The notes beneath the pieces were generated by a model that did no database searches, was not told the DNA's origin, and worked only from the letters and a program-made list of their open reading frames with translations. A stretch of 64,000 nucleotides of DNA, taken from contig NC_135763.1 of the NCBI RefSeq assembly GCF_052425735.1, positions 14,384,001-14,448,000 on the forward strand, in the 5' to 3' direction. Source of the DNA: Oculina patagonica. Its lineage: Eukaryota. The position numbers and the translations under genes were made by a program. Below, one piece after another: positions 5,296 through 62,702 of the stretch. How positions within the stretch are numbered: position 1 is the stretch's first letter; each line of letters starts with the position of its first letter.

Positions 5296-6270
5296 ATGTA
5301 CCTCAACTATTCTATAAACTGCCAAGAAAAGCAAGTTATTACTCAAGAAAATAATTCTTGTTATCATTTTCCCGTATTTCTGGCTGAAAATGTTCCGCAA
5401 AAACTCATCGTGTCTAACTGTGTGATTAACATCCTGCTTTTGGTAACAGCAACCGTTGGAAACATTTTGGTTTTATCTGTAGTATGGAAGACGCCTTCTC
5501 TTCGCTCTCCATCGATTGTCTTACTCTGTGGTCTTGCAACAACTGATCTTGTTGTTGGCCTTGTCGTCCAGCCATTGTTTCTTTCCATGGAACTGATGCT
5601 ACTCCTCTCAAACTCGGCAGAGTATCATTGTGATTTGGGAAAAGCGTACATCGCCCTTTCCTATACAGTATGCAGTGCATCTTTGATGACAGTAACAGTC
5701 ATAATTCTAGATAGGTTATTAGCAATTCGGTATCATCTGAGGTATACCAGTATTGTAACTGTTCCACGAGTCATCTACATTATGGCTCTTATCTGGTTGG
5801 TAAGCGGATTTTTAGCAAGTCTAGTGCTTTGGAGTGGAAGAAATGTATTTACTGTTGTGATCGCCATAGGAGTTGCCATTTGTCTTTGCTTGTCTACGTA
5901 TGCTCATTTAAAAATACATGTCGTCGTTCGCCGACATCGACAACAAATACAAGCGCAAGCGGAAGCAGTACAGACTGGGAATGGTTTTAACGTGGCACGT
6001 TTCAAACGGACCGCTGCCAACGCTTTCGTAATTCACTGCTTTCTACTATTTTGCTATACTCCACTTTTCATAAACTTTTTGCTGAGTAGCAACAAAGACA
6101 TTATGCAATCAGCATTATATAAGAAAGCCAACAGAGCTATATCCTGGAAATTAACAGCCACTATAATCTTCCTGAACTCTTCTGTGAATCCTTTTATTTA
6201 CTGTTGGCGTCTTCGAGAAATGCGAGTGGCCGTGAAAAGAGCTTTAAAGGGGATCTTCTGTAGGTTGTGA
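5296..6270 (+). CDS. Class A (rhodopsin-like) GPCR, adenosine/melanocortin-receptor-like, 324 aa
   Basis: 7 hydrophobic segments; GN (TM1), LAxxD (TM2), LDRL (DRY position), NPFIY; ATG at 5296 just after a putative acceptor ttattgcag. Confidence 0.93.
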   Translation: MYLNYSINCQEKQVITQENNSCYHFPVFLAENVPQKLIVSNCVINILLLVTATVGNILVLSVVWKTPSLRSPSIVLLCGLATTDLVVGLVVQPLFLSMELMLLLSNSAEYHCDLGKAYIALSYTVCSASLMTVTVIILDRLLAIRYHLRYTSIVTVPRVIYIMALIWLVSGFLASLVLWSGRNVFTVVIAIGVAICLCLSTYAHLKIHVVVRRHRQQIQAQAEAVQTGNGFNVARFKRTAANAFVIHCFLLFCYTPLFINFLLSSNKDIMQSALYKKANRAISWKLTATIIFLNSSVNPFIYCWRLREMRVAVKRALKGIFCRL

Positions 6271-10556: not shown

Positions 10557-11498
10557 ATGAGTCAAGAAAATAATTCTTGCTACCGTTTCCCTGTATTTCT
10601 GACTGAAAATGTTGCGTATGGACTCATCGTGTTCAACTGTGTAACGAACGTTCTATTGTTGGTAACATCACTCATCGGGAACATTGTGGTTTTATCTTCA
10701 ATATGGAAGACGTCTTCTCTTCGCTCTCCTTCGATCATTTTGCTTTGTGGACTAGCGACAACAGATCTTGCTGTCTGTTTGGTCGTTCAACCGTTGTTTC
10801 TTTTGATAGAACTGATGCAACTCCCCCCAAGCTCGACAAAGTATCCCTGCGTTTTGGGAAAGGCATTCATCACTATGTCCTATTCAGTATGCGGTGCATC
10901 TTTAATGACTGTTACGGCCATAAGCCTGGATAGGGTATTGGCAATTTTGTATCACCTGAGATATGCCAGTATTGTGACTGTTCCACGAGTCATCTACGTT
11001 ATAACACTAAACTGGTCAGTGAGCGGATTTCTGGCAAGTCTGATACTGTGGAGTAGCAATAATGTGTTCCTTGTTGTCATGGCTGTAGCAGTTGCCATTT
11101 GTCTCTGCTTGTCTACCTATTCCCATGTAAAAATATATCTTGTTGTTCGTCACCATCAACAACAAATTCAAGCGCAAGCAGAGGCAGTACAGTCAGTACA
11201 AGCTGGGAATGGTTTTAACGTGGCACGTTTCAAAAGGACAGCTGTCAACACTTTCCTAGTTTACTACTTTTTACTTTTTTGCTATACTCCACTCTTTATT
11301 ACTTTGTTATTGACTGGTAAGGAAGTCATAATAAATGCGGCATCATCAAAGAAGACCCATATTGTTATAGCATGGAAATTAACGACAACAATAGTCTTCA
11401 TGAATTCTTCGGCGAATCCTTTTATCTATTGTTGGCGTATTCGAGAAATGCGAGTCGCCGTGAAAAGGACTTTGAAGGAGATTTTCTGTGCGGAGTAA
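10557..11498 (+). CDS. Class A GPCR paralog, 313 aa
   Basis: 7TM; SLDRV; NPFIY; high similarity to 5296..6270. Confidence 0.92.
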   Translation: MSQENNSCYRFPVFLTENVAYGLIVFNCVTNVLLLVTSLIGNIVVLSSIWKTSSLRSPSIILLCGLATTDLAVCLVVQPLFLLIELMQLPPSSTKYPCVLGKAFITMSYSVCGASLMTVTAISLDRVLAILYHLRYASIVTVPRVIYVITLNWSVSGFLASLILWSSNNVFLVVMAVAVAICLCLSTYSHVKIYLVVRHHQQQIQAQAEAVQSVQAGNGFNVARFKRTAVNTFLVYYFLLFCYTPLFITLLLTGKEVIINAASSKKTHIVIAWKLTTTIVFMNSSANPFIYCWRIREMRVAVKRTLKEIFCAE

Positions 11499-12024: not shown

Positions 12025-12091
12025 GGGCCTGTCCGGGAGTCGAACCCGGGACACACCCAAAGCGAGAATCATGCCACTAGACCAACAGGCC
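12025..12091 (-). pseudogene. tRNA-Pro(TGG) pseudogene
   Basis: Minus strand GGCCTGTTGGTCTAGTGGCATGATTCTCGCTTTGGGTGT-GTCCCGGGTTCGACTCCCGGACAGGCCC; 67 nt; 3' strand of the anticodon stem (CGAGA) deleted. Confidence 0.85.
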
Positions 12092-12261: not shown

Positions 12262-13963
12262 TTGTTTTTGATTATTTGAAGCGAAGGAATAGTTCCAACG
12301 CTGTGGGATGCCATTTGTGATATTAAAACCAAAAAGTTTCGGAACTCAGTAGGTTTTAATATTTCGGCTTTTACTGTTTATGTAAGTAACGGATGAAGAC
12401 TGTAACCGACACAATGGGTGGCTATGGTGGTTTACTTAGTAGTGACCTGTTATCCCTATTTAATTGTATCGCTTAGGTAAATTACCATTGTTAGTTAAAT
12501 TGAAGAAATTATAATAGTGAGCTCACTAATAAGTTTTCCTGGATCGGAGTAGATTGTCATGAAAGCTCAGAAAGTCTGCCATTCTCGTCAGGGGCACAAT
12601 GACAGACCCCTTAGAGAGATAATTATTTCGCAAAGAGTAAGCTAGAAAAAAAAAAGGGGGGATAAGCGCGCGCGGGAAGACGTTACATTGATCTTTTATC
12701 CGTATTGTAACGTATCGATAAACTAAAAGCCAAATCAGGGTAAATCTCTCTAAACCACGTTTCAAACTGTGGTACCACAGCTGGCTCTACGTGGCTGAGC
12801 TAACTGTTATCAATCTATACCGATGAAACGTTAACAAAATGTTAAAATGTATATGGATGGTATATCGACTCTCTTTGGAGCCCAGGCTGCGCGCGCGCAA
12901 GATGCAGACGTTCAAATAAAAGCACGCGCGTACAAACAGCCCTCGCGAGCAAACAAATGAAAACACCCAAGAGAGTTTGTTCCGTACCAAGCGCTCGGTT
13001 TTTTCCGATGGTGAGTTTGTTATTTTTGTTTTTAAAGATTCAATTTACCAAATTTAATCTTAACAACAATGTTTAAAACATAGCAGCTGCGAAAGCTTAT
13101 TTAGTTTACGGCACTTATTAGTAATAAAATCTCATCATTTATTATAAACACATTCAACGAACTTTTATAACTTAGGTCATTACATTTTGCCTTATTTTAA
13201 CATTTTGTTAACGTTTCATCGGTATAGATTGATAACAGTTAGCTCAGCCACGTAGGGCCAGCTGTGGTACCACAGTTTGAAACGTGGTTTAGAGAGATTT
13301 ACCCTCATTTGGCTTTTAATTAATCGATACGTTACAATACGGATAAAAGATCAATGTAACGTCTTCCCGCGCGCGCTTTTCCCCTTTTTTCTAGCTTACT
13401 CTTCGCGAAACAATTATCTCTCTAAGGGGTCTGTCACTGTGCCCCTGACGAGAATGGCAGACTTTCTGAGCTTTCATGACAATCTACTCCGATCCAGGAA
13501 AACTTATTAGTGGGCTCACTATTATAATTTCTTCAATTTAACTAACAATGGTAATTTACCTAAGCGATACAGTTAAATAGGGATAACAGGTCACTACTAA
13601 GTAAACCACCATAGCCACCCATTGCGTCGGTTACTTACACAAACATAACTATTAGGACTTTTTCTTTACCATCTAGTCAGTTAACCCTCTAGTCAGTCAG
13701 TCTTATGGAAGGTTTTCTGCACTTTCGACCTTCGTCTGCTCAGTCTGTTTGTTCAGACCTTTCACGTGCTTATGCACATGTCAGGCTGTTCACTCGGCAG
13801 TTCATTAGGATCGTTGTTTTTGCAGTCTTCATCCGTTACTTACATAAACAGTAAATGCCGAAATATTAAAACCTACTGAGTTCCGAAACTTTTTGGTTTT
13901 AATATCACAAATGGCATCCCACAGCGTTGGAACTATTCTTTCGCTTCAAATAATCAAAAACAA
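12262..13963. repeat. Long inverted repeat (arms 12262-12848 and 13194-13963, 345-bp spacer)
   Basis: Arms are reverse complements apart from scattered substitutions and ~190 bp extra in the right arm (13635-13822); produces mirror ORFs 12526- and 13277+. Confidence 0.92.
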
Positions 13964-16900
13964 ATCGTTAATGTAATTCAACTTGTAAAGCTCCAAGGAA
14001 TACTGAGTCTTCTTCTCATACAAATCGTTAATGGAATAAATCTCTCTGCGAATTTCTCCGGTTACTCCTCGTGTTTTTGTTACACCTTTTCTCCAATTTT
14101 GAAGCATTTCAAATGGCGAAAGATCTCGAGCCATATCGAAAGCAAAACTCTGTTTCTTGCAAATTAGTGCATAACAGAAACAAATTGCTCATTTCAAATT
14201 TCAGTTGTCGGTTACAGAGCGAAAAAAAATGTCGCCATATGTCTTTCGAAATTTGATATTTGAATATACAATCCAACGGTTAAAGAGTTTATGCTAAAAA
14301 CCTTCGACTCGAAGGAAAACTAAATCATCTTACGGAAAACAACACAATGCTATTCTAAACTCAGCCAAATGCTATCGGCTTGCAGTAGTTAATTTCAAAC
14401 TTAACTAAACACAAGCCCCCAAGTTAACAGGGAACACAAATGAAATTAATATAGAAATTAATATAAAAATTCGTACTGCTCAATCGACCTTCGAATCTTT
14501 CAATTTCTGTTCCAAGCGCGAGCTATAATGGCTCTCGCAATTGGCCTCCTCGTTTAAAATTTCAAATTTTACTATGTCGTAGTCTACACGCCACGCAACT
14601 CGTCTTTGGCCAATTCATGAACGAAGGACTGCAGAAAATTGGTAAGAATCTTTTTTCTTTCATCTTTAAGATGGAACTTTTCGTTAAACATTAAGCGATA
14701 CCAAAAAGTCTAACTCACCGGTTTGTCTCAAACATGACTCTTTCAAACCAAGAAATGGCAACCGCAGATGACTTAGCATTGATAGAGGCGGCGGCTAAAG
14801 TCGAACAAGCAACGAACTACCAAAGTGGTAAAACGAAGAAAGTCAAGGTAACTCGCCGAACCTTAGTTTAACGATAGTTTTCCAAGCCATTCCTAAAGAC
14901 AAACTGCACGTAGATCCCAGCCAAATGGTACCAAATGGTTTCAAACGTGCGGGTCAATAGGTTATCTCCTTGGTAAAGTACAAATAAACTCGTGCCCATT
15001 CCCTCTCCTTCCTGACTAAATTTTAAATCAAACAAGCACTCGGAAAGTGTAAATTTCATTTGGCTTTCCCTCCCTTTCATACCTATTTACCAGGTAGTCC
15101 TTCTGGGTTCCTGATGAGAAGAGGGCTATTTTTGTTCTTTTGCAATGGTTTGGGAAATGCTAATAGTGAGCTCACTATAATTGGGTATTTAAATATTCCG
15201 CAAACACCAGCGGTAATTGGTGTTATAGAAGTAAATACCAACTATGATTAACTAATAATTTATTGCAGAAAACCAGACGTAACAAAAAGAAAGAAAAGAA
15301 AGAACAGAAAAACAAGGAAGAAAAGAAAAAAAGGATCAAATTAATTAAGAAATTTAAAAAGATAAATAAGGAAATAAAAGAAAAGAACAAAAAATTGAAC
15401 AAAGAAAAGAAAGAACGAGAACACAAAATATCGTTATTAATAAGGAAACAAATCAGAGCAAAACAAATGGCTGCGCAACTCACTAGAATGGCTGCGGAAC
15501 TAAGATCCCTTACGAAGAATATGCAGGGAGTATTCCAAAGCTTAATCTAATGGCAAAAAGTTTTATTTTTGTAACAAAAGTGATGTTGAAAAGAAGGAAA
15601 TAAGTATAAAGTGTAAACAGAAATTTCAGAAATCTGTATTTTTTAAAAACAAAAACAAAATTAAAATCAAAATTTCAAAGAAGCAAGAGAAAATATCTTT
15701 TATTTTTAAGCAACAAATATAATTTCTGTTTATTTCCTTTTGCAATAAGCAATCTCCATTATATAGTCCAGTCAATATAAGCCATTTCGTTGTCTAACCC
15801 AAAACAAATTGCAACAAAAATAAAACATGCCTTATTCGACTTTGCATATATTGAGGAATAACATACTAAAAGTCACCGTGAATCGGAGTATTGGAACGTC
15901 GTCTTTTTTGCGATATTTGAACTACAATGAAATATGAGAAATTTAATTTATGCATAACTAATGTGATTTTTACAAGTAACATTGAAGGGTCCATATCGAC
16001 AGAAATAATCAAGCTAGCAAAACCAAACAACGACAAACCAACAAATCAGTTTACAACAAATGTAGCATTTTTTACTTATCCTATTTATTGCGGGAAATAA
16101 CATTACTATTCTGCTCTTTTTGGTACTTTAGAGATCGTATTACCAGCGGCCGGATTCTGGCATAGATGCAAGTATAGTAACAGCGTTCGCTAATCGGATA
16201 TTTCATTAAAAAAGCTGAGTTTTCTTCAAAAATTAAAGATACTGAAAACTGATAAAGTATAATTATACCTTTTTGATGAAAGAATAAACGCTGGTCAAAA
16301 AAGGTAACGGCTGGTAACTAGAATTGCGGCAAACAATTATGGCGGGAGTCTTGGATAAAACCCTTAACATAATCTGTCAGAAAACGTAATGCGTGAATTT
16401 GCTCCCCCAAAACCCTTTCTGCTTATTGGAAGGTGCCTATAATTCCAAGAATCAACACTGATTGATCTTTGCAAAAGTCCCCCGAGTGACTGAGCCGTCA
16501 CAGACGCCGGGGACACAACCCCGGCGTAACTATGGGCACGCCTCCATCTCTGCACTTAATTCTTTTACAAAAGGATGAACAAATTCTTTCAGGAGTAGCA
16601 GAATGATTTTGAACAAAAGAAAAAGGGTTAACATTTGGAAAAAGTTTGGTAACAACCTGCAAATGACTTCAAATTATTTACAAACATGAATTCAAAATTG
16701 ATTTAAACCACAGTGACAAGTTTGGTATCACTCTATATCCACTCTACATTAGCATTTGTATACAGCCACGTCAAATGCTATACAGTTTTGTACGCCAATT
16801 AGTCCAGTCAAATTAGTATTGCACCCAAAACAAATTGTAACAAAAACTAAACATGCTGTTCTTGACTTCAAATTTGGTGTAGAATACGCTGCTGAAAGTC

Positions 16901-17479
16901 ACCGTAAATCTAAGCATTGGAACCTTGTATTTTTTATGACTTTCAAACCATTGGCGAAATTCCCAAATTGGCTGGTATGTAATATGGCGGAACCAAATAA
17001 AACAAAGTTCTAGCGTCTGTAATTCCACGAATAATAAAGACAGCTAAACCAAAATTGATATAACAACTGATTGATTCATTACCAATATAGTAACACAAAT
17101 GTTTTCATGTGTGACGTAATGATGGCGTCACAGATTTAATTCCAATAGCCGCCATTGATTTTTCGGGAAAATATGTTCCGATCAATTCAGATTTATAAAA
17201 AAAAAATATTTAAGAAATCAGGATATTTTTGTCTTGCAGTAACTAAAATATCAATGTAAGAAAAATTTGGCCTGTATTTTTAACTGGATTTAATATTTTC
17301 ACACTAAAATGTACTACAACAAGTCGAGTTAAATGGTCAAAGTGATCACTGACGAAAACATGTAGGATTATAGGTCCAATATTATCGAAATGTTCTGAAC
17401 AGACATAACCGCCCGCCCTAACGCTGTTGCAGTGGCTTTTACGGAAAGGATCATTTCTTAATTAACAAATACATAAGCT

Positions 17480-18200
17480 GAAATGAGCTCGAACTTTCAC
17501 GTCTCACAGATCCTCAGTGCAACTTTCTACAACAACACCTGAGCAAAGTAAGCTTATACACTGCACCCGTTTAGTACCCCAGTTGCTTTTACATTCGATT
17601 GCTTTTAACAAGTACGCTTAAAGTGACTGCGTGTTCAACTGCACAGGAACCAAGCTTTCTTTAATAACCTTCCATCGGTTTCCATCCCCAGTCCTCAGTG
17701 CACTTGTTGACTCCATTCCACTGCTGTACTTGATGATAGACCCTCAGGCTGTGCTACGAATAGGCATTATATCCCGACGTGTGGGTAGCATGCTGGGTAA
17801 AACTTTGCTGCGAAAGTGCCTCACTTGAAGGACATCCAGCTTTTCTCCAGGTTTATCATTTTAGAGACAGAACAGGGAGTCAATCTCCTGCTGTAATAAC
17901 GGCAACCCTAGTGGCTTGTTGGTAGTTAAATACTTCAAAATATTTCCTGAAAAATGCCCCAGAGTCGAGTTTCTTCAAGGAAACAGATTTTTGAATGCCA
18001 ATGCCAATATTTACTTTGTGAGTTAATTTATGTGCTGGTTCAGTCAGATCATAATTTATGTCCACTGCTCTTGAACAGAGTGAAAGGAGGAATGTATAAT
18101 CTCCAACTATTACAGTGTTGCATCTTGTGACAACTGTAGTTTGTATCAAAAGGACTTCGGCATTACCCTACGCATGTAATACGTCATTACTATGCCGTTT
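17480..18200 (-). pseudogene. Academ transposase C-terminal relic
   Basis: Frameshifted, stop-containing HSLRVYHQVQQWNG, TEDWGW and XPG-like motifs. Confidence 0.7.
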
Positions 18201-18954
18201 AAAATGCAGAGGTAGTAGCGCGACGAACCTTATCTTGTTTCACATTTTTGGAAAGGAAATCTTTCTTTATAACATACACTCTTTCCCGAGTGAATCTAAC
18301 ATCATGCATCGCTCATCCCACATCTGACCCTTTTATCGTGAGTCATATTTGGTGGCTGGTCTTCTTCGATAACCATCCAAAAATACAGTGGCAGAGCCAT
18401 ATTTTTTGAAACATATGTAAAGTAACGACTGGAAATAACGTCATACATACAGTGTCCTAGTTGCACATGGCATGAGTAAGGTATGGCTTATGTCCTGCCG
18501 AGAATGAAGCTAGAGTTTGGCCTTTTAATTGTTTACCGTCGGACATGAAAAAATTGAACTCTAGACTTCTTTTTAAACAAAAAGTTGTAGAAAATTTTTA
18601 TTTGTAATAGTCATAAGTTTTTATTTGTTTTTAACCGTTGTCTTTTTAACATTTCTTAACTTTTTTTAAGCTTTGTAAGTCATCTTTTTAAATTTTAATA
18701 TCTTACAGGACCCCTAAGATAACAGTACTCCAAAGTACTGATGGGTTAATCCTGTTAAAATATTTGTTTTATTTTTATTTCTTAAAAAGGATTTTAAAAC
18801 AGCGAGAAAAAGGCGTGTCTGTTGATGAGTTAATGCTTTCCACCGCAGTGGTTTAACAAATGTGACGATTGGCGTACAAAACTGTATAGCATTTGACGTG
18901 GCTGTATACAAATGCTAATATTGAGTGGATAGAGTGATACCATACTTGTCACTG

Positions 18955-19071
18955 GCTGCTTGCCTTTTTAAACTCTTCGGTTATTTCAGGCCACCAGACC
19001 CTTAATTATTTATTAATACCATATATATGTCTTTTCCTTTTGTATGAGGGTGAATAAAGTTGTTGTTGTTG
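18955..19071 (+). mobile_element. 3' tail of a non-LTR retroelement inserted in the right TIR
   Basis: Absent from the left arm; ends aataaa(gtt)n. Confidence 0.65.
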
Positions 19072-20769
19072 TTTGAATTCAAAGTTTGAATTCATGTTTA
19101 TCAAGTCATTTGCAGGTTGTTACCAAACTTTTTCCAAATGTTAACCCTTTTTCTTTTGTCCAAAATCATTCTGCTACTCCTGAAAGAATTTGTTCATCCT
19201 TTTGTAAAAGAATTAAGTGCAGAGATGGAGGCGTGCCCATAGTTACGCCGGGGTTGTGTCCCCGGCGTCTGTGACGGCTCAGTCACTCGGGGGACTTTTG
19301 CAAAGATCAATCAGTGTTGATTCTTGGAATTATAGGCACCTTCCAATAAGCAGAAAGGGTTTTGGGGGAGCAAATTCACGCATTACGTTTTCTGACAGAT
19401 TATGTTAAGAGTTTTATTTAAGACTCCCGCCATAATTGTTTGCCGCAATTCTAGTTACCAGCCGTTACCTTTTTTGACCAGCGTTTATTCTTTCATCAAA
19501 AAGGTATAATTATACTTTATCAGTTTTCAGTATCTTTAATTTTTGAAGAAAACTCAGCTTTTTTAATGAAATATCCGATTAGCGAACGTTGCTTCTATAC
19601 TTGCATCTATGCCAGAATCCGGCTGCTGGTAATACGTTCTCTAAAGTACCAAAAAGAGCAGAATAGTAATGTTATTTCCCGCAATAAATAGGATAAGTAA
19701 TAACTGCTACATTTGTTGTAAACTGATTTGTTGGCTTGTCGTTGTTTGGTTTTGGTAGCTTGATTATTTCTGTCGATAAGGACCCTTCAATGTTACTTGT
19801 AAAAATCACATTAGTTATGCATAAATTAAATTTCTCATATTTCATTGTAGTTCAAATATCGCAAAAAAAGACGAGGTTCCAATACTCCGATTCACGGTGA
19901 CTTTTAGTATGTTATTCCTCAATATATGCAAAGTCGAATAAGGCATGTTTTATTTTTGTTGCAATTTGTTTTGGGTGTAATACTTAGTTGACTGGACTAA
20001 TAAAGTAATGGAACACTGTGATAGTTCTCTGTTTTTATTACTCTTTCTACAGAGGCCTGTTACTCTCCATGAACTCCTCTCTGCCGCAGACTAAAAAAAA
20101 AAACAAAAATAAAGGATTATACCATCTTTATTTCGGTTTACTCTGCAATGCAAAAAGTAATACAAATTCATTCATACAAGACATATCATTCAGTAAAAAC
20201 ACTAAACCTTTGCCCAAAAAAGACCCACCTCCGCATCTACACAAATAATATACCCGTAGTATACATATATGCGGTTTGAAAACAAATTTACAAACCCACA
20301 TTGAGGAGCACCCTACAAATCTATACAGTAAGTTTCCAAGCGGTATATACCAGTCTTAATGGTCAAACCATTGTTTTTTTAGAGAATGAAACAATTTTAT
20401 AAAAAGTATTATTTTAGGAAGAAAAATTTTAACAGAAACCCCCCCCCCCCCCCCTCCCTCCTCCACCTATAAAGAAAAATACGAATTCAATCAAACCTTT
20501 AGTCTACTAGTCTCCAGGATATGTTGGGGCAGCCTGAGCGTTTGAATTTGCGGGTTGTCTCTCGGATGTCTGCACATTTCGTTGATGTGAATATTTACTG
20601 GAACTGCTGATCATTCTGACTGCGATTATGGTTGTTGTCTACATTCCGTTGCGCATTTCAAGTCAGCACTCAGGCATTGGTTGTGGTACCACAGCTGGCC
20701 CTACGTGGCTGAGCTAACTGTTCACAATGGTCAGCACCCAGGCACTAAATAGAAACATAAAACTCTTTT

Positions 20770-26479: not shown

Positions 26480-27463
26480 CTACCACCTATAGAAAATCTT
26501 CTTCAAAGTCCGTTTAACGGCCACTCGCATTTCTCGAAGACGCCAACAATAGATTAAAGGATTCACAGCGGAATTCATGAACACGATCGTGCTTGTCAAT
26601 TTCCAGGCTATAGCACTATCGGCGTTCTTCCATGATGCCGACTCGATCTTGTCCTCTTTGCTTGTCAACAGTAATGTTATGAACAGAGGAGTATAGCAAA
26701 GGAGGAGGAAGTAGTGGATGAGTAGAGCATTCACCGCTGTCCTTTTAAACCGTACTACGTTAAAGCCATTGCTCATATATGCTTGGACTGCCTCTCTTTG
26801 GACTTGAATTTGTTTTTGATGGCGGCGAACAACGCGATAAATGTTTACTTGGGCGGCTATTGACAAACTAAGGCAAATGCCCACTACAACAGCCATGACA
26901 ACAAGAAACACCTTATTTCCACTCCACAGCATTAGACTTGCCAGAAATCCGCTTGCCAAATAGTTAAAGGTCATAAGGTAGATGACTCGTTGAACGGTGA
27001 CGATGTCAACATATCTTAAATGAAATTGAAGCGCTAATAATCTATCTACGCTAATGGCTGTAACAGTGAACAAAGATACGCCACATACCGAATAGGACAC
27101 AATGTGAAATGCTTTGCCCAAACCACAATGATATTCGTCAAAGCTGTCGAGGAGTTGCCTCAGTTCTATGTAAAGATACAATGGTTGAACGACAAGACCA
27201 ACAGCAAGATCTGTTGTTGCGAGTCCACAGAGCAATACATTCGAAGGGGAACGCAGAGAAGGTGTTTTCCATACCACTGATATTACCAAGGCGTTTCCTA
27301 GAATCGCTGTTATTAGAAGCAGTATGTTAATAACACAGTTAAACAAGATGAGATTTTGTGGAACATTTTCAACCTGAAATATGGGAAGGCGAAAGCATGA
27401 GCTGTTGTCTTGAATTGCCTCTAGTTCCGCATGGCAGTTTGTAGAACAGTTATTATTAAGCAT
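26480..27463 (-). CDS. Class A GPCR paralog (start MLNNN by homology; upstream in-frame ATG at 27517)
   Basis: 7TM; SVDRL; NPLIY. Confidence 0.92.
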   Translation of the reverse strand: MLNNNCSTNCHAELEAIQDNSSCFRLPIFQVENVPQNLILFNCVINILLLITAILGNALVISVVWKTPSLRSPSNVLLCGLATTDLAVGLVVQPLYLYIELRQLLDSFDEYHCGLGKAFHIVSYSVCGVSLFTVTAISVDRLLALQFHLRYVDIVTVQRVIYLMTFNYLASGFLASLMLWSGNKVFLVVMAVVVGICLSLSIAAQVNIYRVVRRHQKQIQVQREAVQAYMSNGFNVVRFKRTAVNALLIHYFLLLCYTPLFITLLLTSKEDKIESASWKNADSAIAWKLTSTIVFMNSAVNPLIYCWRLREMRVAVKRTLKKIFYRW

Positions 27464-28537
27464 GATGATATCCGTAGTCCAATTTAAATCGTAAAAGCGG
27501 TAAAGTTCTTGTCGCATCAAAGGCGTCTCCTTTCGTCTCTTTCCTTAACCTCTGATTAGATTCAGTGTTTGTGAAGAATTAACCCCGTAAAACGATCTAG
27601 AATCGTGCACATGCATGTTTAAGCATTTTGAGAACGTCAAAGTTCATATTGGAGACCCAATTTTAGGTCTAATATCATTGATTCAGTTCACTCGCGCCGC
27701 CTCGATGTTTTGATGCATCCTATATACTGTAGCTATATATGGAATCATCTGGACTTGGAGACCTGGACTGCGAGACTTGTCTTGCACTTAAATTAACGCA
27801 GGCAACAAGTTCAAGTCAATGTTTTTTCGCTTTTGTGCAAACAATAGTGCGCAAAATTCAGAAAAATGTGAGCGCCAATATATAGAGCTTTCCTTTACTG
27901 GTTGAGAGAGGAAGTAAAATCCGACATGAACTAAAACAACAATTTCATTATTAAAACATAGGACATGACAATCACCAAACCCTTCCATTAAACTTAAAGA
28001 TACATAGATTGACAACATTTTTAACCTTGTTATACATTCAAAATTCTCCAAGCCATCGCCTCCAGTGAGCAAACTCATGTAAAGATCCTTAAAAAATTTC
28101 TCTCGTACAACATTTAAACTCCTTAAAGCGAAACATCACAAATTGTGTTTGAAAACATGAAACTAAGTCTAGTTGTTACCAAGTGAATACTCGAGCAATT
28201 TCTGGAAAATTTTTACAAACACGTCTGATACTATTCTCCAAGTATACTTGACTAAATGCAATTACCTATACAAATAAGCTAAGTGCTATTGTACTTTCTA
28301 TTAGATTTACTTAAGGGGTTTTTGTCTTATGCTCATCGACACAAGGAAGTCATCAACGTCTATTAATGCAAACCAAAGCGGATGAAGCATTTCATCCTCC
28401 CCCGTACAAATGCATAACCTGATACAATCCATATCCTCTTTAATTCACTCAAACAATACCCTGTAATTTTAATAATGTTTCCATGGAAGCAAAGCCTCTG
28501 CGATGGCTTTTACTATTGTCATCAATACAATCACAAC

Positions 28538-30134: not shown

Positions 30135-31190
30135 TTAACAAAATCTCAACCTACAGAAAATCGCTTTCAAAGTCTTTTTCATGGCGACCCGTATTTCTCG
30201 AAGACGCCAACAATAGATAAAAGGATTCACAGCGGAATTCATGAATACTATTGTGCTTGTCAATTTCCATGCTATAGCGCTATCGGCCTTCTTCCATGAT
30301 GCCGAATCAATCTTGTCTTCATTGCTTGTCAGCAGTAAAGTAATAAACAATGGAGTGTAGCAAAGGAGAAGGAAGTAGTGAATAAGAACAACGTTGACAG
30401 CTGTCCTTTTGAAACGTGACATGTTAAAATCATCACGCACTTGAACTGCGTCTCTCTGCGCTTGAATTTGTTGTTGATGGCGGCAAACAACGCGATAAAT
30501 TTTCACGTGGATGAACACCGACAAACAAAGGCAAATGCCCACTACAACAGCCATGACAACAAGAAACACAATTCCACTCCACAAGATAAGACTTGCCAGA
30601 AATCCGCATGCCAACCAGTTTAATGTCATAAGGTACATGACTCGTTGAACGGTGCTAATATTAACATATCTTAGATGATATTGAAGCGCTAATAACCTGT
30701 CTATACTGATGGCTGTCACAGTCAACAAAGATACACCGCATACTGTATAGGACACAACAATAAATGCTTTTCCTAAAGCACAATGATACTCTGCCGAGTC
30801 TTCGCGGAACTGCGTCAGTTCTATATGAAGAAACAAAGGCTGAACGACAAGACCAACTGCAAGATCTGATGTTGCCAGTCCACAGAGCAATACATTCGAA
30901 GGAGAACGCAGAGAAGGTGTCTTCCATACTATCGATATAACCAACAGATTTCCAACAATCGCTGTTATAAGAAACAAGAAGTTAATTGCGCAGTTAAACA
31001 AGATAAGATTTTGTGGAACATTTTCAACCTGAAATACGGGAAAGCGGAAGCACGAGCTGTTGTCCTGAATTATCCCCTGTTCTTCTTGGCAGTTTATAGA
31101 ACAGTTGTTAAGCATAATGATAACCGTATTCCAATTTAAATTATCGTTAAAAGTTCTGAAATTTGCCCAAGCATTTTTATCCTCCACCAT
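30135..31190 (-). CDS. Class A GPCR paralog, up to 351 aa
   Basis: 7TM; SIDRL; NPFIY. Confidence 0.92.
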   Translation of the reverse strand: MVEDKNAWANFRTFNDNLNWNTVIIMLNNCSINCQEEQGIIQDNSSCFRFPVFQVENVPQNLILFNCAINFLFLITAIVGNLLVISIVWKTPSLRSPSNVLLCGLATSDLAVGLVVQPLFLHIELTQFREDSAEYHCALGKAFIVVSYTVCGVSLLTVTAISIDRLLALQYHLRYVNISTVQRVMYLMTLNWLACGFLASLILWSGIVFLVVMAVVVGICLCLSVFIHVKIYRVVCRHQQQIQAQRDAVQVRDDFNMSRFKRTAVNVVLIHYFLLLCYTPLFITLLLTSNEDKIDSASWKKADSAIAWKLTSTIVFMNSAVNPFIYCWRLREIRVAMKKTLKAIFCRLRFC

Positions 31191-33056: not shown

Positions 33057-33998
33057 TTATGAGTTCTCTCCGTTTTCTTTACAACACAAGTTCCTTACGA
33101 TACCTCTTACACTTTCTCTAATTTCCTTTATCCTCCAACAGTAAAGCAAGGGATTCGCAAACGGAGAGGAAAACAGAACGCCCGTGCAAGCATTGAAGGC
33201 CGCTTTCGATGATTTAGTTCCGAATTCGTCCATAATGCTAATTACCAAAAAGCAGCACACGAAGGGAACATAACTCAGTAAAAATATTGAAAGAATATAC
33301 AAAATTGTGAATACAGATTTTCTGTATTTTTCGATGTCAATGGCGTTTTGATTTGTTTGCACTTGACTTTGGTGGTGACGTATAATTTGGAAAACTTTGA
33401 AATAGGCGAAGACAGTGATAAAAAAGCAAAGTGCTGCCCCTAAAATGAAGATGACAATAAATATACTGAAGGGCTCATTTGTATAATACCAGTTGTACAC
33501 GCGACCAGCGAAAAACGCAATCAGCAAAACTACAAACGTTATATAAATAACAACGACCCGACGAACTGTAAGAAGAGATCTTCGGCTCATATGCAGCCAT
33601 CTTTCGACAGCCATTATTGTCATATCGATGACCGTTAGAGAGGAAAAGTAGTATCCAACACTTTGTGTGATAACACCACCAATACAGAACATCTTATTGT
33701 TTCCAAATAGCCCCGCCAATCGGTACATAACGAAAACCGGTTGAACCATTAATCCGGTGCAAAAGTCGGTGAAGGCCAAACCAGCAAGAAGAACATAAGA
33801 TGGAGTCCTCAAGGACGGGTTTTTCCAAATTGCTGCCATAATCAAAGCGTTTCCCGCCACTGTCATCGGTGCTAGAAGTGAGGTGACGACACAGGTTGTA
33901 AGAGTCACCTGATAGTAAACTGAGGTGCTTTTACTGGCGTTTGGAAAAACTAGAAAGGAACACCAACTGTCCTGTAAGCGAGAGGAATTAAAGGCCAT
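33057..33998 (-). CDS. Class A GPCR, divergent subfamily, 313 aa
   Basis: 7TM; LAFTD; AVERW; ANPLLYCWR. Confidence 0.93.
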   Translation of the reverse strand: MAFNSSRLQDSWCSFLVFPNASKSTSVYYQVTLTTCVVTSLLAPMTVAGNALIMAAIWKNPSLRTPSYVLLAGLAFTDFCTGLMVQPVFVMYRLAGLFGNNKMFCIGGVITQSVGYYFSSLTVIDMTIMAVERWLHMSRRSLLTVRRVVVIYITFVVLLIAFFAGRVYNWYYTNEPFSIFIVIFILGAALCFFITVFAYFKVFQIIRHHQSQVQTNQNAIDIEKYRKSVFTILYILSIFLLSYVPFVCCFLVISIMDEFGTKSSKAAFNACTGVLFSSPFANPLLYCWRIKEIRESVRGIVRNLCCKENGENS

Positions 33999-55500: not shown

Positions 55501-55528
55501 TTTTATTTTTTTTTTTTGCTGAACCGTT

Positions 55529-55830
55529 AGTAGTAAGGACCGCTTAAGTTCGGATCTAGCCAATCACAGAGCAGCATTTCTGCGCATGCGTAGAGGGGGA
55601 AATCACGTGACTTGGGAGGGATGACGTCATAGGAGTCGGTCCCAGGGTGGTCCGAGTCTCGGTTCTAGGCCCCAACGGCCAAAAAGCGCTCGCCCCAGTC
55701 CCCCTCGGAAATTTTTTTTAAAAAGGGGCAAAAAATGGATGAAACGGGAAAAAATCACGTGACTCGGAGGCGATGACGTCACAGCAGTCGGTCCCAGTTC
55801 CCGAACGGTTAGAATGAACTTGGTCCCAGT
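55529..55830. promoter_or_regulatory. Viral terminus (probable TIR) with duplicated E-box + CRE module
   Basis: AGTAGT; agccaatca; tgcgcatgcg; aaatcacgtgact..gatgacgtca..agtcggtcccag at ~55600-55645 and ~55751-55797. Confidence 0.65.
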
Positions 55831-55947
55831 CCTCGCGCGGAAAAAACGACAAGACAAGAAAATAGGTGTAAAAACAGGTTTTTTTTAATAACAGGTTTTT
55901 TCTGTTAAGGTACAAGACACTAAAAAACGGTAACAAGTGGTCCTAAA

Positions 55948-56019
55948 GCCCCGGTAGTGTAACGGGTATCACTCCTGCCGCTGAGGTAGGCAATCGAGGT
56001 TCGAGTCCTCGCTGGGGAT
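55948..56019 (+). tRNA. tRNA-Gln(CUG)-like Pol III gene inside the Polinton terminal region; atypical anticodon loop
   Basis: Cloverleaf: acceptor GCCCCGG/CTGGGGA, D arm GTG..CAC, anticodon stem CCTGC/GTAGG with loop CG-CTG-AG, T arm CGAGG-TTCGAGT-CCTCG; A box TAGTGTAACGG; B box GGTTCGAGTCC. Confidence 0.8.
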
Positions 56020-56020
56020 A

Positions 56021-56029
56021 TTTTTTTTT
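56021..56029 (+). terminator. Pol III oligo-dT terminator
   Basis: T9 starting 2 nt after the tRNA-like 3' end. Confidence 0.75.
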
Positions 56030-56168
56030 CCTTGTGTCAATGTTCACTAAGCCCTAGTGGCCGCGCACCCTGGGAATGAACGTGTACAAAGTTAGCAAGA
56101 CCACCATCCTATAGATATGGTTCACAAAGTGCCATACTGTCCTTGTGGTATCTGGAACTCAATACTTT

Positions 56169-56323
56169 GCACTAAACGCATGCGCAGATGAGTCTACGCG
56201 ATACACTCACGATTGATAATTAGTTACCTCTCTTGTGAAACCACAAAGGTTGTCTCAGAAAGCGCCATGCCTTCCTTATGGTATGGTTCTTCCTGGCACT
56301 AAACGCATGCGCAGATGAGTCTA
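56169..56323. repeat. Perfect 29-bp direct repeat gcactaaacgcatgcgcagatgagtctac x2
   Basis: Copies start at ~56169 and ~56295; contain NRF1-like cgcatgcgca and AP-1-like tgagtc. Confidence 0.9.
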
Positions 56324-56537: not shown

Positions 56538-56903
56538 TTAAAGTTTCAACTTTTTCTTGGCTTGCATGATTCGTTTGACAATGCGTTCCGTCATGGTTTT
56601 ACTTCCAGGTAATTTGTTGATGGCTTTAATCATTTTCTCGTCGGCTTTCCACTTGTCCCTTAGATTCTTGGCGTGACTGTAATCGATGTCGTGCTGTTTG
56701 GCGATCTTGTCTAATCGATTGATGCCCGGGTCCCCGCGTTTCAATCGCTTTGCCAATTTGGTTCCGGGACCCATGTACTGATAACCGGGCCAGTGAAATT
56801 CGATTCCAGTCTTGCCGAGCCACTTCTGAATGTCGATCCCACGTCCGCGTTGTCGTCGCCGTGTCGTCTTTTTTTCAGTCCTCTTCTTCTTGGTCTTCGT
56901 CAT
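56538..56903 (-). CDS. Parvovirus VP1u-type phospholipase A2 (adintovirus PLA2X-like)
   Basis: PGYQYMGPG Ca-binding loop; LDxxAxxHDIDY catalytic motif; basic leader ending QRGRG. Confidence 0.9.
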   Translation of the reverse strand: MTKTKKKRTEKKTTRRRQRGRGIDIQKWLGKTGIEFHWPGYQYMGPGTKLAKRLKRGDPGINRLDKIAKQHDIDYSHAKNLRDKWKADEKMIKAINKLPGSKTMTERIVKRIMQAKKKLKL

Positions 56904-59737: not shown

Positions 59738-59949
59738 GTCTTTCTAGCTCTGTCTTCTAATGTCTGGATCAATTCGCTGAAGTAAGTCTTGTTATATTCT
59801 CTCACGAATTTCCACATCTGTCGCTTTTCGGCCAAATGTAACACAGTTTGCATGGCGTCGTAGTCCATGTCCTCTTCTCTCATACGCTCGAAATGACGAC
59901 CGCACAGGTCCAAGAACACGAGCCACACGTGATCGTTACGTACGAACAT
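59710..59949 (-). CDS. Hypothetical viral protein, 79 aa
   Basis: ATG-initiated; overlaps both neighbours. Confidence 0.65.
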   Translation of the reverse strand: MFVRNDHVWLVFLDLCGRHFERMREEDMDYDAMQTVLHLAEKRQMWKFVREYNKTYFSELIQTLEDRARKTCQDIRQQE

Positions 59950-60601
59950 CTCGAACGAATCTGTAACATCTCATGCATCCCTCGTCTTTTAAGAGGTGGC
60001 TAAAAATCCGTCTGTCGTCGCCACTGGCAGGGTGTAGATCCAATACCATGTAACCAAAGGGTCTTTCCGTCGTCTTGGTGTAGACGTCCATCACATCTTG
60101 CCATCGGGAGGGAAACGCTTGTAACAGTAAATTCCTCATGCCCAATTGATCGCGAGGGTTCTTGAAAGCCACGATGTAATGCGCATTTCGAGAAATGCTC
60201 TTGGCGTATTTTCCCGGCGGAAACATGTCTTGACACAAGTACAGAACGGTGATGTTCCTGTGGTGGGAAAGTTTGGTGAACAGATCCAATACTCTCTTGT
60301 CGTTTCCTCCTTCTTCCATCAGATCGTCCAATACCATCACCCCTCCACGGGGAAACCATTTGGTCAAATCTACTTCTTCGGGAATCCCTTCGTGAAATTT
60401 CACGCCTCGCTTTTTCATGTTCGCGAAACCGTCTTGCCAAGCCCCAAAACAATAATGAATGGTCTCAGGGGGTGTACTAAACAACTCTTTTGAGTGATTC
60501 AAAAGTACCGACTCGGTAAAACAAGTCTTTCCGCAGCTAGAGGGGCCCACGATCAAAATGCTAGAGGGCATCCGAAAGCTAAAGGCTTCACCGCGCTCCA
60601 T
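59936..60601 (-). CDS. DNA-packaging ATPase (FtsK-HerA / A32-like)
   Basis: Walker A GPSSCGKT; Walker B VMVLDD; SHHRNITVLYLCQ; ISRNAHY. Start chosen at MERGEAF (60601). Confidence 0.93.
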   Translation of the reverse strand: MERGEAFSFRMPSSILIVGPSSCGKTCFTESVLLNHSKELFSTPPETIHYCFGAWQDGFANMKKRGVKFHEGIPEEVDLTKWFPRGGVMVLDDLMEEGGNDKRVLDLFTKLSHHRNITVLYLCQDMFPPGKYAKSISRNAHYIVAFKNPRDQLGMRNLLLQAFPSRWQDVMDVYTKTTERPFGYMVLDLHPASGDDRRIFSHLLKDEGCMRCYRFVRDVRT

Positions 60602-60713
60602 GGCGAAATGACATTCGTCAAAAAACGAGCAATGATATAAGCATGTTGCAGAAAAAAAGTCTGCAACGAACCTCGAGCGACAGACGACACACACCTTATT
60701 CATTACAACGTTT

Positions 60714-60726: not shown

Positions 60727-61296
60727 TCACAACAACAAGTGTCTTACACCGCAGAGAGACGGTTCACAATCCTGATGGTATTCCATCTTACAAATTTTGT
60801 GCCACGACCTTTCCTTCGAGATCAATTGCTTCAACATTTGCCCAACTTTATGATCATTGTACACGTAATCATGTTTCTTGAATCTCGCTTCGAACTGACT
60901 CATGCTACGTCCTTCGGCCCTATCGATGAGATACATCAGCGCGTAATCGCCGCAGCTCTGACTGAACAACGATTGTAGACTCTGTCCGTTGCGCTCCACG
61001 TACTTCCAATGAGCGTCCAACCAATCTTGCAACGGTTGCGCCGTCTGGTACACCTTCAGGGGTAAGGCGTAACTGTCCAACACTTCGCACACGTTTCCAT
61101 TCGTCCACAGAGCGATCCAATGCCGACCGCGCATGTAGTGAGGATCGGTGTTGACGATGTACCCGCGGGCTTCCGTCTTGAATGGTTTTCGAGGTAATCG
61201 ATCGCAGGCCACTGTCCCGTAAAAGTAAGGTTTCAACCAAGGGTGATGTCTGGCCAACTGATCCAACTGCACGTTATTCAAAGTCACTTTCTCCAT
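60727..61296 (-). CDS. Adenain-like (clan CE) maturation cysteine protease
   Basis: IVNTDP..GRHW (His), VLDSY (Asp), LQSLFSQSCG (oxyanion Gln, catalytic Cys). Confidence 0.93.
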   Translation of the reverse strand: MEKVTLNNVQLDQLARHHPWLKPYFYGTVACDRLPRKPFKTEARGYIVNTDPHYMRGRHWIALWTNGNVCEVLDSYALPLKVYQTAQPLQDWLDAHWKYVERNGQSLQSLFSQSCGDYALMYLIDRAEGRSMSQFEARFKKHDYVYNDHKVGQMLKQLISKERSWHKICKMEYHQDCEPSLCGVRHLLL

Positions 61297-61298
61297 CA

Positions 61299-62702
61299 CT
61301 AACGCTGGTACACGTCGTACAACACGGCTTTGTTCTTGTCAATCTCCAAGAGATTCTCAAACTCTCCGTACACGATGATGGTCAAGTTCACAGCTGGGTT
61401 GGCTCCAAAGTTCAGCTCTATTAGTAGATTTCCGGCTTGCTTGGGGTTCATCCTGTAACTGTCCACGCATCCGTTGGCCACGTTGTCGAACACGAACAAC
61501 GTGCAATTCTTTCCTTGTCCCAAATCTTCACCTCTCACCATGTTTCCTTGCTGCTTGCACAGGCAACCGGTGGCTTGCAAGAAACGGTGGTACCCTCTGA
61601 GATCTTTGGTGCCATCGTTGTGGACCAACTCTAGCGTCTCGTAAGGATACTCTTCTCCTCCCACGAGTTGTTTTATGCTGCTCATTCCAAACTTCTGAAA
61701 ACAGAAGGGATCGTTGACCACGTTCCCGGTGAAGGCTGTGGACAGTACCATACCCACGATCACGCGGTTGGGAATTCTTCCTTGGAACAAGTTGGTGCAT
61801 TCGTACCGTCGTTGATCTCCCTGCATGTTGAAGGTCCGAATCTCGCTTCTCACGGTCGGGTAACTCACCACTTGACTCTTGGTGGTCATCTCATCCATCA
61901 GTCTCCTGTACGTCGTGGGATTGAGACGCACTTGACACAGGTACATTCGAACTTTGACTTCCTCGGCCGTCAACTTTCCTGCCAGACCCACTCCGTTCAA
62001 GAACACGTCGGGAGAATTGAAGTACATCTGTATTCCTATCTGCACTCTGGGTACCAACAACTTGCTCAGATGAAACACTTCGATGAGGGGTTTGAAACGC
62101 AACACGTGTCGCTTGCCTTCCGTGTAATTGGCTTGTTCTGCTTTAGAGTTCTTGAGAGCCTCCTTGTGATTGGCGGTCAGGGCTACATAGTCTGCGTGTC
62201 CAGCTCCAGCGTTGGCTGCAGTGTTCGTGTTATTGTCCGTCCACGTGGCTGGGAAATCGATATGATTGTACCAGCCTTGAGGTTTCAAGATGGTTTCTCC
62301 ATCACGTCTGTCGTAATTCAGCAACGTTTCCAAGAAGGCTCTGTAATGGTACGTGTCCGTCTGGGGACTGATGAGAGTACCGTTGAGACGCACGCTGATT
62401 TGCTTGAACAGAGAATGGGCTAGATTGTTGACGGGCCACAGCTTGTCGGCAGCTGCCACGTTCTCATCGTTGTCTTTCTTCAGTTGCAATTCTACCTCGA
62501 AGAAGCTACGGCTGAGATCGATGTAATCTTCTTGGGGGTCGATCTGAAACTCCACCGGATTGATGCCTGTGGTGTAGGTCTGAACGGGGACCATCCGATA
62601 CGACGAGACGCTGACGTCTGTCGGTGGTACGGCGAATAGATCCAATCGAGGATTGGCCTCGCGTCTCGACTGCGGGTAGGCGCTCGAGATGGTTTCGGTC
62701 AT
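61299..62702 (-). CDS. Major capsid protein (double jelly-roll, hexon-like), 467 aa
   Basis: LDLFAVPPT N-terminal motif, YIDLSRS, PVNNLAHSLFKQ, YHYRAFLETLLNY, GRIPNRVIVGMV typical of Polinton MCPs; ATG at 62702. Confidence 0.93.
   Translation of the reverse strand: MTETISSAYPQSRREANPRLDLFAVPPTDVSVSSYRMVPVQTYTTGINPVEFQIDPQEDYIDLSRSFFEVELQLKKDNDENVAAADKLWPVNNLAHSLFKQISVRLNGTLISPQTDTYHYRAFLETLLNYDRRDGETILKPQGWYNHIDFPATWTDNNTNTAANAGAGHADYVALTANHKEALKNSKAEQANYTEGKRHVLRFKPLIEVFHLSKLLVPRVQIGIQMYFNSPDVFLNGVGLAGKLTAEEVKVRMYLCQVRLNPTTYRRLMDEMTTKSQVVSYPTVRSEIRTFNMQGDQRRYECTNLFQGRIPNRVIVGMVLSTAFTGNVVNDPFCFQKFGMSSIKQLVGGEEYPYETLELVHNDGTKDLRGYHRFLQATGCLCKQQGNMVRGEDLGQGKNCTLFVFDNVANGCVDSYRMNPKQAGNLLIELNFGANPAVNLTIIVYGEFENLLEIDKNKAVLYDVYQR

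Follow-up and report, generated by a model that had tools for sequence, protein, structure and literature searches.

A conserved tRNA-like gene with a purine at position 33 in the terminal repeats of a coral Polinton

Introduction

Why would an integrating relative of the adenoviruses keep a tRNA-shaped gene at both of its ends? The question is raised by a 64,000-nt stretch of the Oculina patagonica genome (NC_135763.1, positions 14,384,001 to 14,448,000; hereafter the window, in whose numbering all coordinates are given unless a further locus, L, is named), which contains the left end of a Polinton and, within it, a 72-nt gene with the outline of a tRNA. The Pol III RNAs of animal viruses (VA RNAs, TMERs) are thought to be tRNA-derived, and to our knowledge no intermediates are known. 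A first-pass annotation of the window had seen in this gene a candidate VA-RNA analogue, with tRNA structure and promoter kept and decoding features lost. We describe here a virus-borne, conserved tRNA-like gene, whose fold is under selection while its anticodon apparently is not, and which sits beside canonical and degraded relatives; together these form a natural series for testing why a virus keeps a tRNA gene, be it for translation, as a decoy or for chromatin. The gene also adds a non-coding class that goes unmentioned in the available main text of the coral polintovirus survey, where the term "tRNA" is absent (PMC11131425).

Results

The gene lies in the terminal inverted repeats of a Polinton

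The carrier element measures ~20.2 kb and ends in inverted repeats of ~670 bp that are 98.5% alike (left repeat 55529..56197, compared with the right end in L032). The left repeat begins AGTAGT and is preceded by a 6-bp target site duplication, ACCGTT (55523..55528), which is repeated past the right terminus, beyond the window; AGTAGT-starting terminal inverted repeats and a 6-bp duplication identify the element as a Polinton/adintovirus. Motif counts show the left repeat to be rich in CACGTG, TGACGTCA and GCGCATGCG. Just outside the window (L031/L097) the element encodes a protein-primed DNA polymerase B (PF03175, 163 bits), whose best named relatives are from Oculina patagonica (99% over residues 800–1288) and Porites lutea, and an rve integrase (PF00665, 50 bits) with a chromodomain.

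Nearest to the tRNA-like gene, and convergent with it, is a PLA2X-type terminal gene (56538..56903, minus strand; PF08398, 46 bits), of a class described in the available sections of PMC8502044. Further inward on the minus strand are a likely packaging ATPase (59936–60703; Pox_A32, E 0.07) and a likely adenain-type protease (60727–61296; Peptidase_C5, E 0.013), both weak matches under the Pfam cut-off, and a likely double-jelly-roll major capsid protein (61299..62702), recognized through Atlas neighbours with the PF21738 DJR-like domain (score 0.98), Pfam and PDB sequence searches with this candidate being without match. The capsid gene served as the marker for finding sister elements. The first-pass annotation placed the tRNA-like gene on the strand opposite to all viral ORFs; this holds for the part of the element inside the window, where the viral ORFs are on the minus strand, but not for the right half, where plus-strand genes are present.

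Host DNA to the left of the insertion contains five clustered single-exon rhodopsin-family GPCR genes (5296–6270, 10557–11498, 26480–27517, 30135–31190 and 33057–33998), long nested inverted repeats (15797–19976 and 12262–13963; up to 766 nt, 98%) that are probably DNA transposons, and a tRNA-derived remnant (12025–12091, minus strand) that is 5 bases shorter near the anticodon arm.

A tRNA-type cloverleaf with an irregular anticodon loop

The gene (variant A, 55948..56019, plus strand) begins 419 nt inward of the AGTAGT terminus at 55529. ARAGORN calls it tRNA-Gln(CTG) and calls no other tRNA in the window. On a 1.1-kb stretch it scores 36 bits against the Rfam tRNA model RF00005 (gathering 29, E 1.2e-5), a check that the first-pass annotation had proposed; on a 10-kb stretch the search filters missed the gene. 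Parsing against host tRNAs delimits a Pol III type 2 A box (TAGTGTAACGG, 55955–55965) and B box (GGTTCGAGTCC, 55998–56008), and an oligo-T terminator, T9 (56021–56029), begins one base past the gene, all on the plus strand. The original description of a 72-nt gene with both boxes, an A-run ~27 nt upstream and a T9, ~420 bp inside AGTAGT, was thus accurate. The A-run itself (TAAAAAA, 55921–55927, plus strand, beginning 27 nt upstream of the gene) is present, but the surrounding sites vary among copies of variant A, and a second variant of the gene, variant B (below), has no counterpart. The T-run is more regular, with 7–10 T starting 0–1 base after the gene in 32/32 intact copies. A second copy of the gene lies in the right repeat, and both copies point inward, against the nearest viral gene.

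Pairing is nearly complete, in that 19 of 21 stem pairs form in variant A and 20 of 21 in variant B. The D, anticodon and T stems had all been annotated as paired; the D stem of variant A has 3/4 pairs, with T13:T22 unpaired. The sequence parse confirmed all three irregularities noted at the outset, G33, G38 and the G1:A72 mismatch (C1-G72 in variant B); position 73 is T. The anticodon loop (55979..55985, plus strand) reads CGCTGAG, that is C32 G33 C34 T35 G36 A37 G38, against CACTAAA in variant B, and the predicted fold of variant A would permit C32 to pair with G38, giving a 6-bp anticodon stem and a 5-nt loop. Set against a canonical tRNA, the gene has a cloverleaf above the Rfam gathering score, an A box, a B box and a T-run, but lacks U33 (G33 in A, A33 in B). 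The folding energy of variant A is no better than that of shuffles (z −1.08), and folding z-scores are not significant for A, B or the other tRNA-like units.

Copies are confined to Polinton ends

A DNA search of the host genome returned 35 matches, comprising 25 copies of variant A, 7 of variant B, 1 decayed copy and 2 flank-only pieces. The A copies are identical and occupy 14 elements; the B copies, likewise identical, occupy 4 elements and carry the anticodon CTA and A33; a single element combines the two, with A and B at opposite ends. The exact D-arm pattern occurs 33 times genome-wide, each time in the end sequence of a Polinton (32 belong to elements with a capsid match, 1 to a decayed repeat fragment), with 0 matches for the reversed control. 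Because the D-arm matches are confined in this way, we regard the gene as part of the virus and not as a host SINE or a chance insertion.

Several host sources were considered and rejected. Dispersed copies outside the element, as a host SINE or tRNA pseudogene would leave, are absent (33/33 D-arm matches in Polinton ends), and the SINE heads sampled are unrelated to the gene; a genome-wide RF00005 search, in which 63 of 53253 candidates were scored, recovered mostly SINE heads. A dispersed host repeat (family X) has only 43/72 identity and is not the parent; its copies (L125–L131) are ~300 bp long, have a tRNA-like core in their interior, end sharply on the 3′ side and are sometimes tandem or inverted. 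ARAGORN at a lowered threshold gave noise, which was discarded. Three of the outcomes that the first-pass annotation had named as fatal to its reading (absence from sister copies, descent from a host SINE head, a one-off pseudogene) did not come about.

Among public contigs, those of runs X1 and X2 (organism labels A and B) contain variant A unchanged, and run X9 (label C) spans the gene with no internal difference among those listed; such contig matches report presence only and have no bearing on transcription. A 129-nt contig of run X6 (record 18), lying over window positions 55937–56061, has 12 differing letters and 1 gap and is possibly a third variant. A viral contig collection held no relative by capsid, D-arm pattern or polymerase alignment.

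Likeness to host and viral tRNAs

Eight length-matched host tRNAs were compared, a partial sample of host isotypes that leaves out tRNA-Trp. The best of these is tRNA-Asp (46/72), with its likeness in the acceptor and T arm; relative to it, variant A shows three compensatory pair swaps, at 12:23, 29:41 and 51:63. The initial comparison with tRNA-Gln(CUG) stands for the D arm, loop and variable loop, but host tRNA-Gln(CTG), whose genes are numerous, reaches 41/72 and so is the more distant overall; variant A shares its T73 and CTG anticodon. The first 25 bases of variant A are closest to a Polinton-borne tRNA-Trp (21/25), that of L209, which has no match in the host genome (G000). The gene differs from the tested host tRNAs at 26–31 positions and retains pairs above the scatter null described below. 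A host tRNA pseudogene undergoing random decay was likewise discarded as a source, given identities of at most 46/72 to the 8 host tRNAs and pair counts far above that null.

The fold is conserved and the anticodon loop is not

Across the 25 A copies, 0/72 gene sites vary, against 21/150 flanking sites (100 nt before the gene and 50 nt after it; Fisher P 3e-4, a value that is optimistic because the copies are related to each other). This invariance among young copies could partly reflect a recent sweep of the terminal cassette. A and B are identical at 61/72 positions, an 85% island between 100-nt flanks whose alignment scores are equalled by shuffled sequence (in 75 and 28 of 200 cases), while the PLA2X genes beside them are 77% identical in DNA. 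At the three places inside the stems where A and B differ, 3:70, 30:40 and 51:63, pairing is retained each time.

Chance retention of these pairs was gauged by scattering an equal number of changes over host Asp, Gln or Glu tRNA, which leaves 10–13 pairs; in 20000 trials the pair count of A was reached by at most 63 and that of B by at most 3. (Pair statistics from alignments that mix host and viral tRNAs reflect only the general tRNA fold and were excluded as evidence.) The anticodon loop is the least conserved part, 3/7 of its bases differing between A and B, the anticodon included (CTG versus CTA), with A37 common to both. Position 33 is a purine in A and B, whereas it is T in 9/9 canonical Polinton tRNAs. 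Of the two features put forward for checking at the outset, stem covariation and conservation of G33, the stems keep their pairing and G33 gives way to A33 in variant B. With 19–20 of 21 stem pairs kept at an identity of 64% or less to the host tRNAs compared, we conclude that the fold is conserved, that U33 is replaced by a purine in both variants and that the anticodon has changed.

Elements of the B type (L221–L224, L027, L028) have an extra terminal cassette of ~1 kb outside a nested second terminus, made up of a terminus, the variant B gene and a second PLA2X gene. In the two B elements with genes listed the polymerase is shortened to 166 residues.

Sister elements and related Polintons

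Sister elements were defined as the 31 host-genome (G000) loci with a capsid gene at least 90% identical to that of the window. Sixteen carry A or B, which, with the gene present in both repeats, answers the earlier call for a search of sister copies and of the opposite terminus. Three others (L038, L043, L046) carry different, outward-pointing tRNA-like units in their repeats, and a diverged tRNA-Asp(GTC) lies in the interior of two more (L047 and L048, which may be haplotypes of a single locus). No tRNA-like unit was seen in the parts examined of 8 of the 29 assessable young loci (2 of the 31 were not judgeable), a count limited by sensitivity, since interiors were partly covered and the model overlooked two outward units that were found by eye. 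The gene is dispensable, being missing from some sister copies that are equally young.

The tRNA-Asp(GTC) genes of L047 (9134–9205, minus strand) and L048 (9118–9189, minus strand) lie between the protease and ATPase genes, have an anticodon stem similar to that of variant B and a B box with C56T. The outward units (L038 ~4510–4600, L043 4521–4592 and L052 ~5575–5670, all minus strand; L085 889–960, plus strand; L089, L090, L091) include one with a ~60-nt insert between the boxes. Those of L038, L043 and L085 keep tRNA spacing, the box region and the T-run with 9–14 of 21 pairs, the L038 unit having an altered B box. Unit types C (L038, L043) and D (L046, L052, L089) occur solely as repeat pairs or beside a terminus, and the related unit of L052 belongs to an element with a 53% identical capsid. 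Repeat interiors can differ wholly where capsids are 99–100% identical (termini of L033–L043), and the swappable modules abound in CACGTG, TGACGTCA, GCGCATGCG, ATTTGCAT and AAGATGGC motifs and in TCGATA-type microsatellites.

Metagenomes yielded 525 stretches with polymerase relatives, of which 79 loci were returned (34 with at least 1 kb upstream of the polymerase, 58 with at least 600 nt after it). Besides the window, 9/79 loci have tRNA genes in or at the element. Nine genes are canonical, with 51–65 bits and T33: His (three), Ala (two), initiator Met, Trp, Val and Arg, in L139, L140, L168, L207 and L209. These host-divergent genes (L139 3935–4097, L140 5605–5676, L207 246–426, L209 3340–3860, L168 10046–10118) are mostly clustered upstream of the polymerase gene, and Ala has G3:U70. 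One pair, "Val(TAC)" of L209 (3788–3860) and Ala(TGC) of L207 (246–318), is 89% alike, an anticodon shift within one viral tRNA lineage. Histone 3′ stem-loops (RF00032) above gathering score also lie inside Polintons (L209 2960–3001 and 3275–3316; L168 4311–4355).

Degraded forms accompany the canonical ones. L210 has a cut tRNA-His; L208 (1956–2016) a His-type body without anticodon arm, more deleted in L205 (8871–8919); L179 and L180 the 5′ half of the L168 Arg gene; and L161 a long-armed unit with a broken loop, its position inside the element being uncertain. The armless units of L208 and L205 sit just past the polymerase stop and belong to the viral His lineage of L139, on a distant polymerase branch. 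Matches outside elements (L162, window 12025–12091 and several in host flanks) were left out of the counts. The tRNA-carrying elements and the window occupy 6 or more positions in a quick polymerase tree (L211 dropped; the label is confounded by short contigs).

The search among related Polintons that the first-pass annotation had proposed gave homologues of A or B in 0/79 of the metagenome Polinton loci, so conservation of A/B is shown only for the present host and contigs of three organism labels.

Discussion

A proposed accessory tRNA mimic

We tentatively favour, with a confidence that stops a little short of even, an accessory Pol III tRNA mimic, a likely non-decoding decoy for host tRNA-binding or tRNA-cutting defence proteins. 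Its ancestor would lie among tRNA genes captured and exchanged by such viruses, the acceptor and T arm being Asp-like and the 5′ part nearest the Polinton tRNA-Trp. The RNA produced by host TFIIIC and Pol III would be ~75 nt long and would be matured by RNase P, RNase Z and the CCA enzyme; these enzymes require the acceptor and T arms, and as both arms are kept the RNA is probably matured like a tRNA. While the virus is active, selection would act on the shape of the tRNA rather than on its reading of codons, and the RNA would work in trans, so that copies without the gene could still spread. A gene selected for shape but not for its anticodon, and the spread of gene-less copies, fit such an accessory trans-acting RNA. 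At a guess, the target may be a Schlafen-type nuclease, a sensor of uncharged tRNA or of RNA, or La. Human Schlafens reportedly cleave tRNA, and the host genome has 5 matches to the Schlafen AlbA_2 domain, putative tRNA cutters. A tRNA-like body can matter by itself in a virus: in the available account, the tRNA-like part of the MHV68 TMERs suffices to restore pathogenesis (PMC8223928).

Against a decoy stand the occurrence of G33 and A33 in natural mistranslating tRNAs that do decode, the CTG and T73 that variant A has in common with host tRNA-Gln, and the canonical tRNAs of close relatives, which point to ordinary translation as the usual role. The same facts lend themselves to an alternative that we consider rather unlikely, in which both variants are attenuated working tRNAs: A, likely charged with Gln, would read CAG, B would be a weak amber suppressor, and position 33, as a purine, would weaken decoding or protect the loop against host anticodon nucleases, so that viral translation continues when host tRNA is cut. 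The full cloverleaf, A37 in both variants and, in B, the paired 1:72 are in keeping with it; as far as the accessible text of PMC11415595 goes, G33 curbs decoding without abolishing it, and phage tRNAs are proposed, in the portion available of PMC10264068, to evade anticodon nucleases through loop changes. Against this, two variants that are conserved elsewhere have different anticodons, variant A shows G1:A72 and the possible C32-G38 pair, and the body is nearer Asp than Gln. Nor was a viral need found. The 20 stops in the window's element are TGA 12, TAA 5 and TAG 3; CAG is the rarer Gln codon there (82 CAG, 137 CAA), although its share is higher than in a small sample of five host receptor genes (12 against 47); and CAG compensation and amber read-through were looked for in element genes and not found, with no gene of amber read-through type in the two B elements with genes listed. 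A TAG-TGA pair after the capsid gene was rejected as a read-through site, as it overlaps the next start codon.

The units with 9–14 of 21 pairs speak against a decoy from another side, since they fit a role at the level of DNA, or decay. On such a reading TFIIIC and TFIIIB would be drawn to both ends by the A and B boxes, one of several swappable host-factor modules that keep the termini open or block silencing of the provirus, the RNA being a by-product. Placement at both ends suits a boundary, types C and D keep the box region and T-run near termini only while losing the stems, and the sister repeats are motif-rich mosaics. We nevertheless hold this to be unlikely: the boxes could do without the acceptor and anticodon stems, yet both are conserved far beyond chance expectation, the L038 unit has an altered B box, and young sisters lacking a unit in the parts examined would be forbidden if the element were required in cis, though other modules might substitute. 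A pure TFIIIC chromatin barrier, as first suggested, thus leaves the conserved stems unexplained. Decay without function, of an old captured tRNA gene caught in a recombining terminal cassette, would account for the many broken or cut Polinton tRNA genes (L205, L208, L179, L180, L026) and for the dispensability of the unit, and a recent sweep could erase variation; we think it very improbable. Invariant gene sites beside variable flanks, an 85% island amid unalignable ones, and compensatory changes with pairs kept after 26–31 differences from tested host tRNAs all oppose it, and the stem statistics largely refute a neutral passenger.

The initial contention that structure and promoter were kept while decoding was lost therefore survives in its first half, stems and boxes being kept, and in part of its second, U33 being lost in two variants whose anticodons differ; G33 is no proof of lost decoding, because natural mistranslating tRNAs carry G33 or A33 (PMC11415595, in the sections available). 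A wider conjecture, which we put forward with considerable doubt, would be that animal Polintons use captured tRNA genes as counter-defence, the coral series running from canonical genes through purine-33 mimics and armless forms to box-only units. The purine-33 pair (CUG, amber CUA) would then be one of two things: an attenuated decoder that resists nucleases, in which case B is an amber suppressor carried by a virus in an animal, or a decoy that shows the transition from tRNA to VA RNA in an adenovirus relative.

Comparison with known systems

The preferred reading, a tRNA mimic, invites comparison with viral Pol III RNAs. Like the coral gene, the adenovirus VA RNAs have an A box, a B box and a U-run terminator and belong to a virus of the same broad group, and their genes are hypothesised to descend from tRNA genes (PMC7589676, here and below from the parts available). 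A VA RNA is, however, ~160 nt long, with a terminal stem, a central domain and an apical stem, where the coral gene specifies ~75 nt and a tRNA-type cloverleaf; and the GGGU-ACCC tetranucleotide pair of VA RNA is missing, there being no ACCC in A or B (PMC7589676). VA RNAs are further marked by inhibition of PKR and by cleavage by Dicer. The MHV68 TMERs likewise are virus-borne type 2 Pol III genes with a tRNA-like fold whose tRNA-like part matters alone (PMC8223928, available sections), and the coral gene, too, has a tRNA-like domain under a type 2 promoter; A and B boxes are confirmed in MHV68 genes, and chlorella virus tRNAs are listed as charged, in the accessible part of PMC4810235. TMERs differ in having pre-miRNA hairpins before the terminator, where in the coral gene the T-run follows within 0–1 base and folding of the next 130 nt does not stand out from shuffled sequence (z −0.75), and in being clustered, in an unrelated virus, against one gene per repeat in the coral Polinton. 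With length, fold, GGGU-ACCC and hairpins all at variance, the gene belongs to neither group by its defining features, and any likeness to TMERs or VA RNAs extends at most to the type of promoter and a possible role.

Yeast tRNA-Ser(CAG) and bacterial tRNA-ProX likewise have a purine at 33, on a body at odds with the anticodon; they differ in being cellular and in having been shown, in the available text, to be charged and to decode (PMC11415595). Phage tRNAs also are viral and changed in the loop relative to the host, with a bacterial host and a proposed part as replacement tRNAs (PMC10264068, as available).

Closest in setting are the Polinton-like viruses and virophages. The first-pass annotation took tRNA genes to lie outside the standard Polinton gene set; in the available part of PMC12220804, a set of about 8300 Polinton-like virus and virophage genomes gives 558 tRNA hits, likewise within ~20-kb Polinton-type genomes, and the legend to Fig. 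6 of PMC8502044 marks MELD viruses with other replicases as having predicted tRNA genes. With the protist Polinton-like viruses and the canonical tRNAs of related coral Polintons side by side, the gene class is less singular than had been assumed; His and Arg isotypes and histone stem-loops are common to both (PMC12220804, available part). In the literature we searched, which left most subscription journals outside its coverage, no animal Polinton was reported to have a tRNA-like gene in its terminal repeats, nor, in the portions available, was the form with a purine at 33 in both repeats. Where the tRNAs of the protist viruses are read as codon compensation in the sections available (PMC12220804), the coral gene belongs to an animal Polinton, stands in both of its repeats, and combines a purine at position 33 with a changed anticodon.
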